DNA of 64,000 bases from Candidatus Versatilivorator sp. (GTDB taxonomy: Bacteria; Acidobacteriota; Terriglobia; Versatilivoradales; Versatilivoraceae), in contig OZ242296.1 of NCBI GenBank assembly GCA_965207735.1, positions 1,696,001-1,760,000 on the forward strand, given 5' to 3'. Every line of letters begins with the position of its first letter. Within the stretch, counting starts at the first letter, position 1. This document shows positions 48,667-57,380 of this stretch, piece by piece. Under the pieces are notes generated by a model. It was not told where the DNA came from. It did not search any database and was given only the letters and a program-made list of their open reading frames with translations. The position numbers were made by a program, and so were the translations under genes.

Positions 48667-48720
48667 TTGAAACAATTCAGGGGCAATCCACGAAGTCGCA
48701 CGAAGGGCCACGAAGAGGTT
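48667..48720 (+). repeat. Degenerate TGAAACAA + periodic CACGAAG element
   Basis: TGAAACAATT...ATCCACGAAGTCGCACGAAGGGCCACGAAG resembles the reverse complement of the array units at 50.7-55.2 kb. Confidence 0.65.
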
Positions 48721-49034: not shown

Positions 49035-49760
49035 TCACACCTGCTTCCCCACCCACCTGACTTCGCCGAAAACCTTGGCGCCGCCAGGCCAGGGGACCGG
49101 GTCCCATGCGGGGTTGTCGCTGACCAACCGCCAGTTGCCGCCGGAGTCCCTGTCCATACGCTTGACCAACATGCCCTCATTGGTCTGGAGAACAAAGATT
49201 CGGCCCTCCTTGAGCTGCGCCCGGTTGCGGTCGACCAGAATGGCGGAGCCGTCGGGGAGGGTGGGCGCCATCGACTCTCCCTTGACGCCGACGACAGTGC
49301 ACTGCTGGGGGTAGAGGCCGTTGCGGTCGAGCCAGCTTCGAGTAAAGGTGATATAGCCGGCCACGGACTCGTTCGGCTCTTCATTGGCACCGGCAGCGGC
49401 TGCCAGCTGTTTGATCGCTATGTGGCGGTTTTCGGCCGGGACTTCCGCATCCTTGGGCCGGGGTTGGCCGAGGAGTAGGGTAAGGTCGCGCCGGATGTCT
49501 TCCCGAAGCCGCCGGGCCCAGTCGGGGCGCTTCTCGACAGCGGGCACCCCCTCGGGCGACTCGACGGGATCATCCATAGGGGCTGTCTGGAGCCGAAGGC
49601 CCAGCACACGGCAGATAGCTTCCAGCGAATCCAGGCGCGGGGAGGAGCCGCGGCGGATGTTGCGAACGGTATCGGAGCTACCGGTAGCCAGGATGGACAA
49701 GTGGCGATCGGAAACGCCACACCGATCGATTAGGTCGAGGAGGTGTCGCCGAAAACTCAT
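49035..49760 (-). CDS. CI/LexA-like repressor (HTH + S24 peptidase)
   Basis: N-terminal HTH (..VRNIRRGSSPRLDSL), AAGA cleavage-like site, catalytic VKGESM and LVKR motifs. Confidence 0.88.
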   Translation of the reverse strand: MSFRRHLLDLIDRCGVSDRHLSILATGSSDTVRNIRRGSSPRLDSLEAICRVLGLRLQTAPMDDPVESPEGVPAVEKRPDWARRLREDIRRDLTLLLGQPRPKDAEVPAENRHIAIKQLAAAAGANEEPNESVAGYITFTRSWLDRNGLYPQQCTVVGVKGESMAPTLPDGSAILVDRNRAQLKEGRIFVLQTNEGMLVKRMDRDSGGNWRLVSDNPAWDPVPWPGGAKVFGEVRWVGKQV

Positions 49761-49837
49761 GAGGTAATTATACCACAAAATCGAATAGCAAAAACAAAAG
49801 GACTTGAATCACGGTTTTATAACCGTATAGTAGCGGA
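49761..49837. promoter_or_regulatory. Divergent leaderless promoters with operator palindrome
   Basis: Minus strand: TGGTATAAT, 6 nt, ATG. Plus strand: TTGAAT-N16-TATAGT, 6 nt, ATG. Inverted repeat ACGGTT-TTAT-AACCGT at 49811-49826. Confidence 0.7.
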
Positions 49838-50137
49838 ATGACTCACCGCGAGGTTCTCCTGACCCTGTTCGAGTGCTATTGCCGGAGGGCGAATCTCAGC
49901 CAGGCGCGGGTCTCGACCCTGGTCTTCAACCACGGTGGGCGCATTGCCAGGATCCGGGCAGGGCGGGACTTCACCATCGGCAGCTACGTGCGAGCCCTGC
50001 GGTGGTTTTCCAACCACTGGCCGGAGGAGCTTCACTGGCCGGCAGGCATAGAGCGCCCCCCTCGGGCCGGCCAGCGCGGTGAGGCGGCGGCAACCGCGCG
50101 GGTCGCCGCCCCGGGAAGCGGAAAAGAGGTGGGCTAA
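49838..50137 (+). CDS. Cro-like small DNA-binding protein
   Basis: Divergent from the CI-like gene. The SQARVSTLVFNHG...RAGRD...ALRWFS.HWP...WP pattern resembles phage Cro-like proteins. Confidence 0.7.
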   Translation: MTHREVLLTLFECYCRRANLSQARVSTLVFNHGGRIARIRAGRDFTIGSYVRALRWFSNHWPEELHWPAGIERPPRAGQRGEAAATARVAAPGSGKEVG

Positions 50138-50281
50138 TCCTGCGACAAGTCCCCCCCTGTCGGGCGGAACATTCAGAGAATAACCGACTGATCGTCAGTT
50201 ATAGGCGAACCACGAATAGGCACGAAGACCGATGGACCTCCTTCAACCACAAGGTGTCACGACGTCAGGGGAGAAAGCCCC

Positions 50282-50306: not shown

Positions 50307-50480
50307 CCCAAAGCCTCTCGCAGTCTCGGCCCTCTCCTTCACCCGGGTCGACCGGCTGCAGCATCGCAGGGAAACTGAGCGGCAACCCAAGGGACAGGAC
50401 TAGAGGCCGCTGCACGAAACGCTGACTCAGGCGGGTGCGACTTGATGAAAAATGGGAGTTCACCACAAAAAGCACAAAAG

Positions 50481-50616
50481 TCACAAAACGAATTTCTTGA
50501 TTTTCGAGTCCTCACGATCCGAAGTTGATCCCCATGGCGTCGCGTTGACCGGATGTAGGCAGATAGCGCGGAACTTGTGCGACATGTTCGGGAGTCAACT
50601 CCTTGCAGGCTTTCAG
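50481..50616 (-). pseudogene. C-terminal remnant of a GxxExxY (PD-(D/E)XK-like) protein gene
   Basis: Translates LKACKELTPEHVAQVPRYLPTSGQRDAMGINFGS*GLE/IKKFVL*, matching the GxxExxY ELK..H.AQ...YL......INFG pattern, with an internal stop and a frameshift. Confidence 0.65.
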
Positions 50617-50679
50617 TGTTCTGCTCTTTTTGTGTTTTTTGTGCCTTTTGTGGCCATTCCCGGCAATGGTCCCGCTGCT

Positions 50680-50697
50680 GAATATTGCAAAAGGCTC
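50680..50697 (-). mobile_element. Solo terminal inverted repeat of the IS5-like family
   Basis: GAATATTGCAAAAGGCTC matches the IS TIR at 17/18 positions; no partner end found. Confidence 0.7.
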
Positions 50698-50822
50698 GAG
50701 AGTGAAACAATCAGTAATCGACCATCCCTTCGCGACCTTGGTATCCCGTCGCGGTGAACCTCAGCGCCTTAGTGGCTCTTCGTCGTTCTTCGTGGCCCTT
50801 CGTGGATAAGTCTTTTTCTTTT

Positions 50823-51357
50823 GAGCCATTTGCAAAATTCTTCGGTAAGCGGAATTGATTACCGGGAAGGGTTGTGATCCCCGGGAGGTCGCGTCTGCCC
50901 TCCTCTGGATCGACGGCGGGCGGAGCACTCTCGGGACGCCGCGTTGGCCCCCCTCCGGATCAGCCTTCGCCATTCGGCTCGGCTTCTCCGACTCCCCCTC
51001 AAGGGGGGAGTGATACTTGAGCGCTGAACCAGGCTCCTTGCCTGATTCCGGGGCATGATGTAAATGATGTTCTCGGTTTAGGGTGTCGAGGATGCCCCCC
51101 CGGGAGCGCGGGCGTCCCGCCCGCACCATGTCGGGCACAGCCTTGGCCATCTCCGCCACTCGGATCGACCCGGAACTGCGCCCTGGGTCTGCTTCGGTTT
51201 GACCGTTGAGGTTGCCGCCGACAGGCCGGCACCCTTCAGCACCGGACGAAGGCTCAGCGCCAGCCAAAGGAATGGGGCATAAGGATGCAGGCGGGACGCC
51301 CGCGCTCCCGGGGGGCTTTTGGGCGGCCCGTGCAGATCCGAATTTTGCAAAGGGCTC
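50823..51357. mobile_element. 535-bp non-autonomous MITE with IS5-like TIRs carrying REP modules
   Basis: Ends GAGCCATTTGCAAAATTC / GAATTTTGCAAAGGGCTC, TTTT on both flanks, no transposase. Internal REPs at 50947-51014, 51100-51125 and 51286-51311. Confidence 0.85.
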
Positions 51358-51512
51358 TTTTGTCTCTTGTCGTTTGTTTCAGACAAGCCGGCCCCCGCCC
51401 TGCCGTGCGGATCATTCGAGAGTGAAACAATCAGAAATCGACAATCCTTTCGCGAACTTGGTATCCCGTCGCGGTTAACCTCAGCGCCTTAGTGGCCCTT
51501 CGTCGTTCTTCG

Positions 51513-53506
51513 GTAGAGTCGAGGGGAGGCGCGCCGGCCTTAGATCGAGGGAGTCGCTGTTGCCGGCGGCTTTCGCCACTCGCCGGTGCCTCAATCTCGT
51601 TCCTCGCTGCGTTTCCTCGCCCCCGCTCGTCAAACCGGACGTGCGGTTTTCCCGCATCCGGCTTTCAGTCAAGATCATGCCTTCGCCCTCGGAAGGCTCT
51701 GTGGCTTCGACCCCAGGCAAGTGAGTCCATAGGTTTTCCATAGTCTCTCGTCCGAGAAGCGCACACTCCCCCCGGTCCTCACCTTGTGCTTCCGACAGAG
51801 CCACTGACGCAGCCGCCCGCCCGCGTGGCGGTCGATCGCTCGGTAGGCCGGGCTCACCTGCCCCAGAACGAAGTAGTTCGCCCACCCGGTCATCGCCCGG
51901 TTCAGGTGTTCTACCATCTGTCCTCGAAGCAGCGTCCCGTTCCTCGGCGCCGTCCACTCGCTGATCTTGCGGCAGATGCTCTGGACGCTCGCCTGGCTGG
52001 GTCGTGTGCCGATGTAGGCTCCTTTCCCTTTGGGGCGATAGTTGCGTCCGATGCGATATCCCAGAAACCCCATCGGTTCCTCCGGACACCGCAAGCATCG
52101 GGTCTTCCGCTCGTTGACCGGTAGCTTCAGCTCCTCCATGATCCGCTTGACCGCCGTCAGCATCTCTGCCGCCGGTGCCCTGCCGAGTACACGGAAGTCA
52201 TCCGCATAGTTGACGATCTCCGCACAGAAGCGCCGGGCATATCCCAGCACCTTCCAGCCCAAAACGAAGCGCCGCATGTAGAGATTGCTGAGCAACGGTG
52301 AGATCGGGGCTCCTTGCGGTGTCCCCTTCCGCTCCCGGCGCCCTCGGTTCCGGCGGCGTCTGCCACCCTTCCCGTCGTCCTCCTCCACCGGCATCTCCAG
52401 CCATGCCTTGATGAGCTTGAGCATCCTCCCGTCACTCACGCGCCGGGCAATGCTCCGAATCAGCTCCGCATGCGGAATCTCGCCGAAGTAGTTGGACAGG
52501 TCGCCGTCAACCACCTCCTGGTAACCCCTTTGCAGGAGTTCATGCACGCGTTTGACCGCGTCGTTGGCACTCCGCCCCGCCGATAGCCATATTGCTCCGG
52601 TTGCAGGTCCGCTTCGAAGATCGGCTCCAACACCAGCAAAGCCGCCGTCTGCGCTACCCGGTCCCGTATGCAGGGTATGCCCAAAGGCCGGAACTTGCCG
52701 GGCTGTTTCTTCGGGATCAGCACCTGCCGCACCGGCTTCGGTACGTAGGTTCCTTCCCTCAGATCCCGCGCCAGTTCCCCCAGCCAGCCCTCCACCCCAT
52801 ACGCCTCGATGTCCTTGAAGCCCTCCCCGTCCACCCCGGCCGACCCGCCGTTTCGGCGTACCTGTGCCCAGGCTTCCTTCAGAAAGTCCTCTCGCCACAC
52901 CTTGTCCGACAGCGCATGAAACCGCCGCTTGGGGTCCTCCTTCGCTTTCGCATGTAGCATGGTCTGGAATTTCCGAACCCCCTCTGACCCTGTTAGACTT
53001 TTGTCAGTGGCCACGCCTTGCCTCCTTTCCATGCTGCTCTCAACTCAGGGTCCCTTCCCTCCACCGGCGTTACCCGGCTTCTCCGGTACTACCGACCCAT
53101 CCGCCACCCTGACGGCCCGGCCTGCCCCTCGCGGGGTCCCGGTTGATGTGTGCCGCATCTCCCCCAGGGCTTCCCGTGTTGCTGCCTTCTTCCCCTTCCA
53201 TGCGTGCCAGCGTCACTACCCCGACGGAAGCGGATCGGTGCCCGCGTCGCTCTCTTCCCCATCCGCCAACGGCCTTCCCCTAAAGACAGGAGGGTCGGCT
53301 TCCGTATTGTCCGTTTCGAGGCCTGCTCGACGTTCACTCGCGTTCCGGCCCGCATGCTCGCTGAGCCGCCCTTGGCGGCCCTTGACGCCAGAGTGCTTCA
53401 GACCATTTCGTTACCTCCATGATCCGCCCTGGCTGCTACCAACCGGAGCGACAGTTGTTGGGCGGGGTTCGCACCCGCCAGAAGAAGGCGCCTTTCCACG
53501 GCGCAC
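51513..53506 (-). mobile_element. Group II intron (1994 nt)
   Basis: 5' end GTGCG, 3' end CTCGACTCTAC, domain V AAGCCGGATGCGGGAAAACCGCACGTCCGGTTT (51632-51664). Removing it restores the array unit with no target duplication. Confidence 0.93.
51675..53014 (-). pseudogene. ltrA: Group II intron reverse transcriptase/maturase, frameshifted near 52580; no HNH domain
   Basis: RPLGIP..RDRVAQ, QYGYR / GRSA.DA split across frames (1 nt short of YGYRPGRSA), GTPQGAPISPLL, YADD, GWANYF; AAAGGAGG RBS before GTG at 53014. Confidence 0.88.
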
Positions 53507-53536
53507 TGTCCCTTCGTGGATAAGTCTTTTTCTTAT

Positions 53537-55023
53537 GAGCCTTTTGCAAAATTCGCAGATAGCGGGAATTTTCACGTGGGGAAAGATCAAGGAGGGCAGG
53601 TGGAAGGAGGGGCAAGACCACTGTCTGTTGTATCATGAAGGTGTCTGAACCACATGATGAACGGAGGTGGAACTTGCCCCTTAGGGAAACCCTATCACGA
53701 CACTGGTTCCGGTTTCAACGAGAGCTGTTTCCCCTGCTGGAGGAAGTTTTGGGGCCTCTGGGAGAGCGTTACCAGCGGCTGGTGCAGGTATTGGAGTTGG
53801 TGCGGGTGGAGGAGTTGCTGCCTTACAGTCGGGGCTGGCGTGGCCGGCCGCTGGAGGATCGGGCAGTGCTGGCGCGAGCCTATCTGGCGAAGTCGATGCT
53901 GGAGGTGGCGACCACGCGGGGATTGGTGGAGCGGCTGAGGAGTGAGGGGAGGCTGCGGCGGCTGTGCGGCTGGGAGAGGGCGTGGGAGGTACCGAGCGAG
54001 TCGACCTTCTCGCGGGCCTTTGCGGAATTCGCTGAGAGCGACCTGCCGGGGCGTTTGCACGAGGCATTGCTGGAGGAGACGCTGAAGGGCCACTTGGCGG
54101 GGCATGTGTCGAGGGACTCGACGGCGATTGCGGGACGGGAAAAGCCAGCGGCCAAGGCTGCGCCGGAGGCCAAGCGGAAACGCCGGCGGGGCCGGCCGCC
54201 GAAGGGCGAGCGACGGCCCAAGCGGTTGAGCCGGCTGGAGCGGCAGGGGTCGATGACGCTGGAGGAAATGTTGAAGGAGTTGCCCAAGGCCTGCGACATC
54301 GGCGTCAAGCGCAACGCCAAGGGGCATCAGGAGAGCTGGACCGGCTACAAGCTACACCTCGACGCCATTGACGGCGGGATTCCGGTCAGTTGTCTGCTGA
54401 CCTCGGCCTCGGTGCATGACTCTCAGGCAGCCATTCCGCTGGCGACGCTGACGGCAAGGCGGGTCGAGAGTCTCTACGACTTGATGGACAGCGCCTACGA
54501 TGCGCCGGAGATCCGGGCCTTCAGTGAGAAGCTGGGGCATGTGCCGATTATTGACGTCAACCCCCGCCGAAGAGCTACCTTGAAAGCCGAGCGGAAGCGG
54601 GAGGCACTGGCCCGGCGCTGTATCGGCCAAGTGACTCCCGAGGCGCGGCGCTACCGGGAACGCTCGACGGTGGAGCGGGTCAACGGACGGCTCAAGGAGG
54701 AGTTTGGCGGGAGGCAGGTGAGGGTTCGCGGCCCCGACAAGGTGAGGTGCCACCTGATGTTCGGCATTCTGGCCCTGACGGTGGATCAGTTGATGCGCCT
54801 GACGCTCTGAAGACCGGGTTGCCACCCCCAACCGCACAGCAGGTTCGCCCGCCTCAAGGCCGGGAGAGGGTAAGCTGTGCCTGCGTCCGGCGACCGCTGG
54901 CCATCCGGCCATCAGATTCGGGCTTTTTCCTTCAAAAGGGTCTTTGCAGCTGGGTAGTCACCGCCGGAACATCACTGTTGCCAGCCCAATGTCATGCCCG
55001 ATTCCGAATTTTGCAAAAGGCTC
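53537..55023 (+). mobile_element. IS5-like insertion sequence, 1487 bp, copy 2
   Basis: Same TIRs as copy 1; TTAT target duplication (53533-53536 / 55024-55027); transposase identical to copy 1. Confidence 0.95.
53635..54810 (+). CDS. DDE transposase, identical to 3062-4237
   Basis: Identical 391-aa translation. Confidence 0.92.
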   Translation: MKVSEPHDERRWNLPLRETLSRHWFRFQRELFPLLEEVLGPLGERYQRLVQVLELVRVEELLPYSRGWRGRPLEDRAVLARAYLAKSMLEVATTRGLVERLRSEGRLRRLCGWERAWEVPSESTFSRAFAEFAESDLPGRLHEALLEETLKGHLAGHVSRDSTAIAGREKPAAKAAPEAKRKRRRGRPPKGERRPKRLSRLERQGSMTLEEMLKELPKACDIGVKRNAKGHQESWTGYKLHLDAIDGGIPVSCLLTSASVHDSQAAIPLATLTARRVESLYDLMDSAYDAPEIRAFSEKLGHVPIIDVNPRRRATLKAERKREALARRCIGQVTPEARRYRERSTVERVNGRLKEEFGGRQVRVRGPDKVRCHLMFGILALTVDQLMRLTL

Positions 55024-55157
55024 TTATGTCTTTTTTCGGTTGTTTCAGGCAAGCCGGGCCCCCCGCCCTAGTGTGCGGATCATGCATAGAGTGAAACAAT
55101 CGGAAATCGACCATCCCTTCGCGAACTTGGCACCCCGTCGCGGCCAACCTCAGCGCC

Positions 55158-57380
55158 TTAGTGCCCCTTCGTCGTTCTTCGTGCCCCTTCGTGGATAAGT
55201 CTTTTTCTTTTGTCGTTTTGTCGTTTGTCGGTTGTTTCAGACAAGGCGAAAGCGACGTAGCTTCCGCCGGAGGGGGCTCCGCTCTTGCCTCCCCCGGCCG
55301 CAATCACCACGAACTGGCGCCCCGACACTTCATAGGTGGCCGGGGTTGCGTTTCCCGAGGCCGGTAGCAGAGTTTCCCACAATAGGCGTCCATCGGCCTT
55401 GTCGAAGGCCCGGAACTTGCGGTCGAAGTTGCTGGCGCCGATAAACACAAGCCCGCCCGCCGTCACAATGGGGCCGCCGTAGTTCTCCGACCCGGTCCCC
55501 ACCATTCCCCTTGCCGCCAGCTCCGGGATTTCACCCAAGGGAACCTGCCAGACGATCTCGCCCTTGTCGAGGTCGATGGCGTTGAGGATTCCCCAAGGCG
55601 GTTTCACTGCCGGGTAGCCTTCCGGATCCAGGAAGCGGTTGTAGCCGTCATGACCGTAGGGCAGGCGGTAGAGTGGCCTGCCGGCCCGGTCCGCGGGGAC
55701 CGAGGCGTCCTTGCCGTAGAGAACAAACCCCAGGATGGCCTCCAACGCGTCCTCCCCCAGGTGGGCAAAACCCGGCATGCGGCCCCCGCCCTGGCGCAGG
55801 GTCCGCCGCACCATCTCCTGCGAACGGCGTTTTCCCAGGTCCACCAGCGAGGGAAACTCCGGGGGGGCGCCGCTACGGTCCTGACGGTGGCAGCCGCTGC
55901 AGTTCCACTGGTAGAGCTGCTTGGCGGTGACGGGGCCGGCGACCGCTTCCCTCGCCACCAGCCGCAGGATCCAGGCCATCTCGCTGGAGTTGACATACAA
56001 CCGTCCCGATTCCGGATCGAAAGCTGCCCCGCCCCACTGCCCCCCTCCGTCGAAACCCGGAAAGAGAACGGTCCCCTCCAGACTGGGAGGAGTGAACTGG
56101 GGTCCGTTGCGCAGCTTGCGGAAGCGCTTCAACACCTCCCGGCGCGCTTCCGGAGTGCGGTCGGTTAACAGGTTTTCCGTCAGGTGCTGGCGGGCAAACG
56201 GAGGCGGCTTCGAAGGAAGGACCTGGGTGGCGGCCAGCCGTTCTCCCGGGACGCCGGCGACCGGAACTTTGACTTCCCTGAGCGGGAACAGCGGACGGCC
56301 GGTCACCCGGTCGAAGGTGAAGACGTGTCCGGACTTGGTGATCTGGGCCACGGCGTCAACCGGCCTGCCCTCCCTCACCACCGTCACCAGGCCGGGAGGA
56401 GCCGGCAGGTCCCTGTCCCACACGTCATGCCTGACCACTTGAAAGTGCCAGACCCGCTCGCCGGTTTCGGCCTTCAGGCAGAGCAACGAGTTGGCGAAGA
56501 GGTTGTGGCCGGAACGGTTCCCGCCGAAAAAGTCGAAAGCCGCCGAGCCGGTGGGAACGTAGACCAGGCCGCGCTGCTCGTCCAGGCTCATGCCGGCCCA
56601 GCTATTGGCCCCGCCGGCGGTTTTCCAGGCCTGCCCGGGCCAGGTTCGATGGCCCGGTTCGCCCGGACGGGGAATGGTTCGGAACCTCCAGCGGAGCTTG
56701 CCGCTGCGGGCGTCGTAGGCTCGAATGTCCCCGGGGGCGCTCGGCAGGCTCTCACCCACCGTGCTGCCGAGGATGAGCAGGTCCCGGTAGACAACCCCGG
56801 GCGTGGTCAGAGAAACGGTGATCGAATCGGGTGGCCGCCCCAGGTGGCGCCTCAGGTCGATAAATCCCCGATCCCCGAAGTCCAGGCAGGACTTGCCGGT
56901 GGCCGCGTCCAGGGCATAGAGCCGGTGCCAGTAGGAGAAGTAGATCCGTGCCTGGGCACCCCGGCTCCAGTACATCAATCCCCGAATGCGAACCCTGTCG
57001 CGGGGAGTCCCGCCCGGAATGGACGGCCGGAAAGACCAGATCTCCCTGCCGGTGGCCGCGTCAAGCGCGAAGACCCGCCCTCGGGGACTGGTGGCATACA
57101 GCCGCTCACCCACCACCAGGGGATTGCATTGCATCTCCGAGCCCGGAAAGGCATCCCCCGTATCGTAGGTCCAGGCGACCCGCAATCGGTGCAGGTTGCG
57201 GCGGTTGATCTGAGCGAGGCGGGAGTAGCGGATCTGCCGGTTGCCGCCTCCGTAGGCGCTCCACTGGTCGTGGCCCGCCCTGGGCAGTTCGCGGCCGGGT
57301 TTCCCGGTCCGTGCCAAAGGAACCCAGGCGACCGAAGCCGCAACCGCCAACAAACAGGCCAGCAGTGCACGGTTTTCCAT
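55158..57380 (-). CDS. PQQ-dependent dehydrogenase with cytochrome c domain
   Basis: PQQ beta-propeller repeats (ALDAATG..W), HDVWDRD, CSGCH heme motif and YGGP.VTAGG. The C-terminal tail is encoded by the repeat unit. Confidence 0.88.

Follow-up and report, generated by a model that had tools for sequence, protein, structure and literature searches.

The window analysed here, a 64,000-nucleotide stretch of a Candidatus Versatilivorator genome (G000; one contig, 5.26 Mb), carries an endonuclease-less (En-less), class F-like group II intron with 13 copies in that genome, which in our estimate (a probability of roughly 0.8) retrohomes to the outer edge of a dispersed repeat matching the arms of GxxExxY genes and uses two RNA guides to do so. 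The first guide, EBS1 (UGUCUU), would pair with the six nucleotides before the insertion site and tolerate G-U pairs, so that RRGRCA is accepted, and the second, EBS2 (GGACAA), would pair with TTATCC lying 3-5 nt further upstream. The first period of the arm alone has both guide targets, which is why the intron would land there. Reverse transcription would likely be primed at the replication fork, and with the repeat about 175 compatible sites, most of them intergenic, would be available. The guide pair appears to be a property of domain I, with sister introns of nearly the same protein carrying other guides and entering other repeats, and arm-targeting domain I alleles in the genus seem to differ in positions 3-4 of EBS1 according to the arm variant occupied. 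We infer mobility from the patterns of copies; on these sequence comparisons, the case that a domain I sub-lineage of one genus is led by its guides into a dispersed repeat derived from arms appears real and well supported. The strategy, a multi-copy repeat used as landing site, is known from RmInt2; the landing site looks new.

The intron spans positions 51513..53506 on the minus strand (1994 nt; the 12 other copies in the genome measure 1995 nt), and its ends are exact: it starts with GTGCG at 53506 and finishes with CTCTAC at 51513, between minus-strand flanks that read CCACGAAGGGACA|CGAAG. It has the features of a group II retroelement, including GUGYG...AY ends, domains I-VI and a catalytic domain V, and Rfam models match both domain I (group-II-D1D4-4, 81 bits) and domains V-VI (Intron_gpII, 40.1 bits). 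Domain V (51632..51665, minus strand), located by the Rfam match and a consensus fold, has a 5-nt GAAAA loop, as do IIE/IIF ribozymes (PMC3753933). The reverse transcriptase (RT)/maturase ORF lies in domain IV, contains YADD and scores 328.7 bits against TIGR04416 in an intact copy (cut-off 300). The intact protein has 452 aa and ends soon after its maturase domain; Pfam finds RVT_1 and GIIM and nothing else, in agreement with the original prediction that the protein has no En domain. That prediction had overlooked a frameshift: one G is missing from a G-run at intron position 929 of the window copy (about window 52578), which splits the ORF into an N-terminal RT part (52460..53032, minus) and a C-terminal RT/maturase part (51675..52571, minus; YADD at 52197-52208), as delimited by ORFs and Pfam matches and, for the N-terminal part, by comparison of copies. 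The ORF is intact in the other 12 copies of this type, and the missing G could reflect either a true mutation or a sequencing error in the homopolymer. Contigs from RNA runs of three studies cover related introns, one of them extending 25 nt into an arm-type 5' flank; contig joins that skip the intron are not proof of splicing, because empty repeats exist as DNA.

The guide evidence starts from a domain I loop that had been proposed as EBS1 at the outset (UGUCUU, 53283..53288, minus) and that both folding and covariation now place there. Its hairpin (53278-53294) appears both when the sequence is folded singly and in a consensus fold of 35 sequences. Across 140 introns with 5' flanks, which represent 52 distinct guide alleles (two of the searches behind them kept the best 80 of 427 and the best 80 of 167 matches), EBS1 is Watson-Crick complementary to exon positions -1 to -6 with z = 7 to 11 against shuffled exons, although these z-scores overstate independence because the guide alleles are related. 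Its partner in the window, IBS1, is GGGACA (53507..53512, minus), which forms 4 Watson-Crick and 2 G-U pairs. The second guide, absent from the original prediction, was located by a variable loop just upstream of EBS1 that covaries with exon positions -12, -13 and -14 (z 8, 5 and 5), equivalent to a 4-nt linker. In the window copy this EBS2 is GGACAA (53307..53312, minus), an internal loop before the YRYGGA stem that is unpaired in the consensus fold, and the predicted IBS2 is TTATCC (53518..53523, minus), with 5 of 6 pairs and a 5-nt linker to IBS1, in a register taken from the sites of relatives together with covariation. The EBS2 register of arm-targeting introns lies one base further out, with GGACAA or GGAUAA facing TTATCC; shifted sites have a 3-nt linker between IBS1 and IBS2, and one relative (L239) has GGUC with AACC as its EBS2/IBS2 pairing. 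The YRYGGA motif beside the EBS2 loop lies in a stem in the consensus fold and shows no covariation. UACGGA was considered as EBS2 and rejected, being near-invariant, paired inside domain I with compensatory changes and devoid of diagonal exon covariation, and its perfect match to the target of the type C introns described below is treated as incidental. In a crude, unaligned test, no exon base clearly covaried with a candidate EBS3.

The repeat that receives the intron had been described as a periodic CACGAAG motif, and this motif proves to be the head of a longer dispersed unit. G000 has 254 matches to the pattern TCCACKAAGNNNCACKAAG; 12 of the 13 other genus genomes have 48-425 each, and the 27 other genomes searched have one between them. 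A common tail follows 167 of the 254 heads, giving a dispersed unit of about 185-190 bp; among 136 plus-strand units, 35 have a neighbour within 400 nt, often in tandem, and four have an inward-facing partner within 700 nt. The suggested link to GxxExxY is borne out by 27 PF13366 loci examined in the genus out of 52 matches listed (one has no motif). In one GxxExxY subfamily of eight genes, six are flanked by CACGAAG arrays, upstream and inverted downstream, while nine other loci have CACGAAT/CACAAAT arms and the remainder use other words. The first 60-106 nt of the unit match GxxExxY gene flanks in sister genomes (blastn E down to 3e-17), whereas the tail does not, and G000 itself retains GxxExxY as fragments only, one of them preceded by CACGAAG arrays. 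Because the head matches flanks with inverted arrays and the genome keeps only GxxExxY fragments, the head of the unit is, as judged from sequence, a gene-less GxxExxY-type arm, and the unit probably descends from a GxxExxY cassette. Each GxxExxY subfamily in the genus (L277-L304) has an arm word of its own (CACGAAG, CACGAAT/CACAAAT, ACAGGAT and others). The sole genus genome that has no CACGAAG repeat, G001, also lacks the intron family's 5' end.

Three repeat units stand in tandem in the window, with heads near 55212, 53532 and 50822, and the intron splits the second into a head, its 5' exon (53507..53532, minus), and the rest, its 3' exon (51358..51512, minus). The two neighbours are empty, as originally described: a GGGGCA variant (55028..55212, minus) and a truncated GGGCCA variant (50698..50822, minus). 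Between the first and second units lies an insertion sequence (IS; 53537..55023, plus) with a DDE transposase gene (53635-54810), terminal inverted repeats of 18 nt and a duplicated ATAA, and between the second and third a MITE (50823..51357, strand unassigned) that has the terminal repeats of the IS. The IS and MITEs (53537-55023, 50823-51357 and 50680-50697) have in common the terminal repeat GAGCCNTTTGCAAWATTC, represented by 132 words in the genome, and elements with these ends insert between or inside repeat units here. A C-terminal GxxExxY (PF13366) remnant (50503-50616) lies between inverted CACAAAA arms (50463..50653, minus), and plus-strand CACGAA-type arms are also present at 48688-48705 and 50210-50227.

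The intron family has 45 members in G000 (15 full-length, 29 ORF-less and one fragment), among which the 13 with EBS1 UGUCUU, here termed type A, are near-identical; nine of the 13 are identical in sequence. Targeting of the CACGAAG repeat, as first proposed, is upheld by 11 of these 13 copies. Ten share one register after TCCACGAA, with GGGGCA at six sites, GGGACA at two, and GAGACA and GTGATA at one each, and one arm copy is shifted by two bases, where it has a perfect AAGACA. The two copies outside the repeat both combine full IBS1 pairing with CC for EBS2. Identical type A introns occupy flanks of different variant, one arm copy has a non-repeat 3' side, and one copy sits in a repeat unit with an internal deletion. 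C1:3379785, which looked like a thirteenth junction, was discarded, there being no intron at that place.

Comparison of used with unused sites indicates what the guides contribute to this distribution. EBS1 by itself is insufficient to explain 11 of 13 copies in arms, because RRGRCA|C has 4465 matches in the genome and only 307 of them are in arms. Adding T.TCC upstream of IBS1 accounts for these copies, since the pairing pattern T.TCC, 5 nt, RRGRCA|C finds 156 arm sites against 30 non-arm sites (84% arms). EBS1-compatible internal periods without the upstream T-C-C were used in 0 of 112 cases, compared with 9 of 184 first periods (p = 0.015), and the earlier expectation that many versions of the periodic motif would be accepted is therefore not supported. 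The proposal that the occupied unit was chosen for its better EBS1 fit fares no better: GGGGCA, the commonest occupied site, is occupied in 6 of 144 instances and GGGACA in 2 of 29 (Fisher p = 0.62). Variants GGGCCA (0/45) and GACACA (0/14, standard register) are unused, and the difference between EBS1-compatible and incompatible first periods is not significant (p = 0.06-0.18). The intron probably reads the edge of the arm, through EBS2 with TATCC together with EBS1, and not its periodicity.

A strong enrichment of insertions in arms would also be expected if the ribonucleoprotein recognised periodic or structured DNA itself, in the manner of IIC introns at terminator or attC hairpins, and EBS1 just fixed the cut. 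The weak EBS1 pairing at six sites (3 Watson-Crick plus 3 wobble pairs) would suit such a mechanism, as would the dispensability of EBS2-IBS2 for splicing of IIE/IIF introns in vitro (PMC3753933; the same work suggested a role for EBS2 in homing). Against this stand the unused internal periods, the two copies outside any repeat and the one with a non-periodic 3' side, the 84% of arm sites already obtained from a pattern made of pairing only, and the unrelated target sequences served by near-identical proteins, and we consider direct recognition of DNA structure unlikely. Nor is it probable that a single insertion was passively copied with the repeat, by duplication or gene conversion between units and with no repeated homing. 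The frequent tandem arrangement of units makes recombination possible, and the copy in a unit with an internal deletion is compatible with it, but identical introns lie in flanks that differ at IBS1 bases, in a shifted register and outside the repeat, and the family has a strand bias that empty units lack, so that we give passive copying slightly less credence still.

This bias is towards the lagging-strand template, on which the sense strand lies in 35 of 45 copies of the family by local skew (p = 1e-4) and in 37 of 45 by global skew, compared with 74 of 184 empty compatible units in lagging-template orientation; for type A alone the counts are 11 of 13 by global skew and 8 of 13 by local skew (p = 0.10). 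It fits the fork-primed homing of En-less class D introns (PMC4615759). Cumulative GC skew in G000 is lopsided, with its maximum at 0.73 Mb and its minimum at 4.51 Mb, which suggests rearrangement or inversions. A further conceivable source of the primer, or of open DNA, for an En-less intron is a GxxExxY nuclease that nicks its own arms. Insertions at the arm edge, one relative whose arm is of the type found with a second GxxExxY subfamily, and the PD-(D/E)XK-type affiliation that the Pfam name gives to PF13366 would all be in keeping with such nicking. We nevertheless hold it to be very improbable, since G000 has GxxExxY fragments only and yet nine identical, hence recent, copies, siblings with the same protein need no arms, and the strand bias points to fork priming.

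Siblings with proteins 86-97% identical target other repeats. G000 has three type B introns (94.5% nucleotide identity; EBS1 UGUAAU), a full-length one, one without the ORF and a fragment, which share a single palindromic target that ends in ATTACA; these three (C1:4589468, 1135573 and 4261108) occupy the right arm of the palindrome CCCAATGTA-T-TACA|TTGGG in another dispersed repeat. Type C introns (86% nucleotide identity; EBS1 UGAGAA) comprise one full-length and 28 ORF-less copies in CCCGCA-T-TTCTCA. The 28 ORF-less type C introns, of about 866 nt (for example C1:72930 and C1:55668), outnumber full-length ones and all lie at a conserved RRCCCGCATTTCTCA|CC-like site, and a site resembling the type C target serves homologues with protein identity as low as 53%. 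ORF-less introns of 860-866 nt carry domain I of types A, B or C (C1:1135573 and C1:55668 in G000; L236-L238, L240 and L256), and the two G000 examples, when aligned, have one common 3' body. A common 3' body under different domains I suggests repeated exchange of domain I.

Beyond G000 the family was followed through 130 5' ends in 13 of the 14 genus genomes, with 84 of the 85 outside G000 read. Thirteen arm insertions were found outside G000, in G002, G004, G005, G008, G012 and G013 (automatic flagging gave 14, one row from G007 having a different target), and with G000 included the count is 24 of 129, in 7 of 14 genus genomes, with five ORF-less copies among the 24. These arm-targeting introns have five EBS1 alleles (UGUCUU, UGUUUU, UGACUU, UGUGUU and UGUGUA), most of which match the occupied variant: between EBS1 nucleotide 4 and exon position -4, the 22 readable arm insertions show C-G in 14 cases, G-C in six, U-A in one and a mismatch in one. 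UGUCUU dominates in G000, where GRGRCA makes up 174 of 254 heads, and UGUGU alleles are found in three hosts, G004, G008 and G012, in which GACACA leads, alone or in a tie, among the three classes of variant that were counted (41/104, 13/60 and 79/141). Poor fits are UGACUU in GGGCCA, with one mismatch, and a G008 copy in a CACGAAT arm, with two, and in G002 the commonest variant (GGGCCA, 111/251) is not the occupied one. No arm insertion was seen in G007, G009 and G011 despite many arms and family introns there. Two or three changes, in hosts that are related, underlie the match between allele and variant, which may reflect co-descent.

A domain I tree with the guides masked groups 9 of 10 arm-targeting rows (support 82/84). 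The tenth, L239, lies in a CACGAAT arm and combines the type A EBS1 with a backbone from another type, which suggests exchange of a patch. The ORF tree rejects a single clade of arm-targeters (p-AU 0.0009), and the domain I tree neither shows nor rejects one; from the rejection on the ORF tree it follows that domain I and ORF recombine and that the protein does not set the target. The idea of an intron lineage specialised for arms thus survives in part, in the related introns of 7 of 14 genus genomes with their changed EBS1 alleles, and has to be given up for the lineage as a whole, given this rejection, the siblings in the same genome that use other repeats, and the arm motif at 0 of 52 homologue sites at 50-85% identity. 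Specialisation for arms is, on these comparisons, apparently that of a small domain I sub-lineage. At homologue sites with both flanks, the motif was found in 4 of 26 at 85% identity or above, 0 of 40 at 65-85% and 0 of 12 at 50-65%.

A search of 301 class genomes for the 3' junction found intron ends that are intact and lead into an arm only within the genus, and 10 out-of-genus 3' junction loci inspected had no domain V motif. The 5' junction pattern was too loose in 401 phylum genomes, with matches near control level and an RT match at 0 of 30 loci inspected, and one of these genomes, G063, which is unpublished, counts towards that background tally alone; nine pattern matches in viral contigs include none that continues like the intron's 5' end. 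None of four more remote introns from the same host family whose 3' flanks could be read lies in periodic arms, and the closest relatives, among the best 80 of 427 matches, belong to Terriglobia or Ca. Versatilivorator. We offer only tentatively the broader view, doubtful at present, that GxxExxY arms form a widespread class of landing site, that class F introns in several bacterial groups independently retuned EBS1 and EBS2 to local first periods and so track arm variants, and that such introns mark the functional edge of an undescribed mobile element; the case here would be one genus of that pattern.

The class F-like assignment draws on the 5-nt loop of domain V and on comparison of proteins. 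One terminal loop contains a GCACC whose complement is the GGUG/GUGC hairpin region and which, by eye, is a candidate alpha-prime element (in IIE/IIF introns, the tip of the DId3 stem-loop). The intron protein groups with Ni.ha.I1 against g1/g2 references (SH-aLRT 99) in a tree that has no class E or g4 reference and in which long branches meet. Ni.ha.I1 of Nitrobacter hamburgensis (class F, g3) is the nearest of the four references, all taken from Table S2 of PMC3552965, with 47% protein identity over residues 12-440. It is likewise En-less, has the same 3' end and 77% nucleotide identity over part of domain I, and its loop GUC faces GAC at -13 to -11, which by eye suggests the same long linker. 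It differs in that its locus, as listed in that table, is an IS4 transposase gene, with another EBS1 and no periodic repeat. Group IIC membership, which implies no EBS2, a 3-4 bp EBS1 and an upstream DNA hairpin, is ruled out by the 6-nt EBS1 and the covarying EBS2. Group IIC introns at terminators and attC sites resemble the present intron in being En-less and in using a repeated class of site, but there a DNA hairpin replaces IBS2 and EBS1 is short (PMC4424553, PMC7923331).

Among systems described in the available literature, RmInt2 of Sinorhizobium meliloti (class D; PMC4615759) is also En-less and homes into a multi-copy repeat of another mobile element, with relaxed EBS2 pairing, lagging-template bias and head-to-tail copies, which also occur among the present relatives (L020). 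Its target is the ISRm17 inverted repeat and its linker 2 nt, in contrast to a GxxExxY-type arm, a 3-5 nt linker and a different class here. The TeI3/TeI4 introns of Thermosynechococcus elongatus (PMC2882425) likewise gave rise, from one ancestor, to EBS families with different targets, keep ORF-less beside ORF-bearing copies and insert into other mobile elements; they are IIB1 introns related to EcI5 (CL lineage), whereas the present arm-targeting alleles span several host species. Homing into repeats of other mobile elements, divergence of EBS into families and ORF-less passengers are therefore known already (PMC4615759, PMC2882425). A literature search, with subscription papers outside its scope, turned up neither a title nor an abstract that concerns introns in GxxExxY arms; the term GxxExxY itself occurred in three papers, and the two that were listed mention it once each. 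The arm target and the 3-5 nt linker between IBS1 and IBS2 look new, the linker in comparison with RmInt2 and with IIB1/IIB2 introns, where IBS2a lies at -14 (PMC8643678).

These results enlarge the set of target types known to give bacterial group II introns many harmless places to land, by adding the gene-less arm of GxxExxY type, and the 52 alleles provide a natural guide-target series from which the place of EBS2 in class F-like introns can be read. Being compact and En-less, with a flexible 3-5 nt linker and a domain I that can be swapped, the intron lends itself to direct tests as a retargetable element, and the fixed register of insertion marks the outer arm edge, which helps to define uncharacterised GxxExxY elements. 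Relatives with head-to-tail tandem introns are L020, L084, L119, L148 and L149. At 49035-50137 the window also contains an S24-peptidase repressor-like gene (49035-49778, minus) and, divergent from it, an ORF of 99 aa, an arrangement that resembles the remnant of a phage-type switch.
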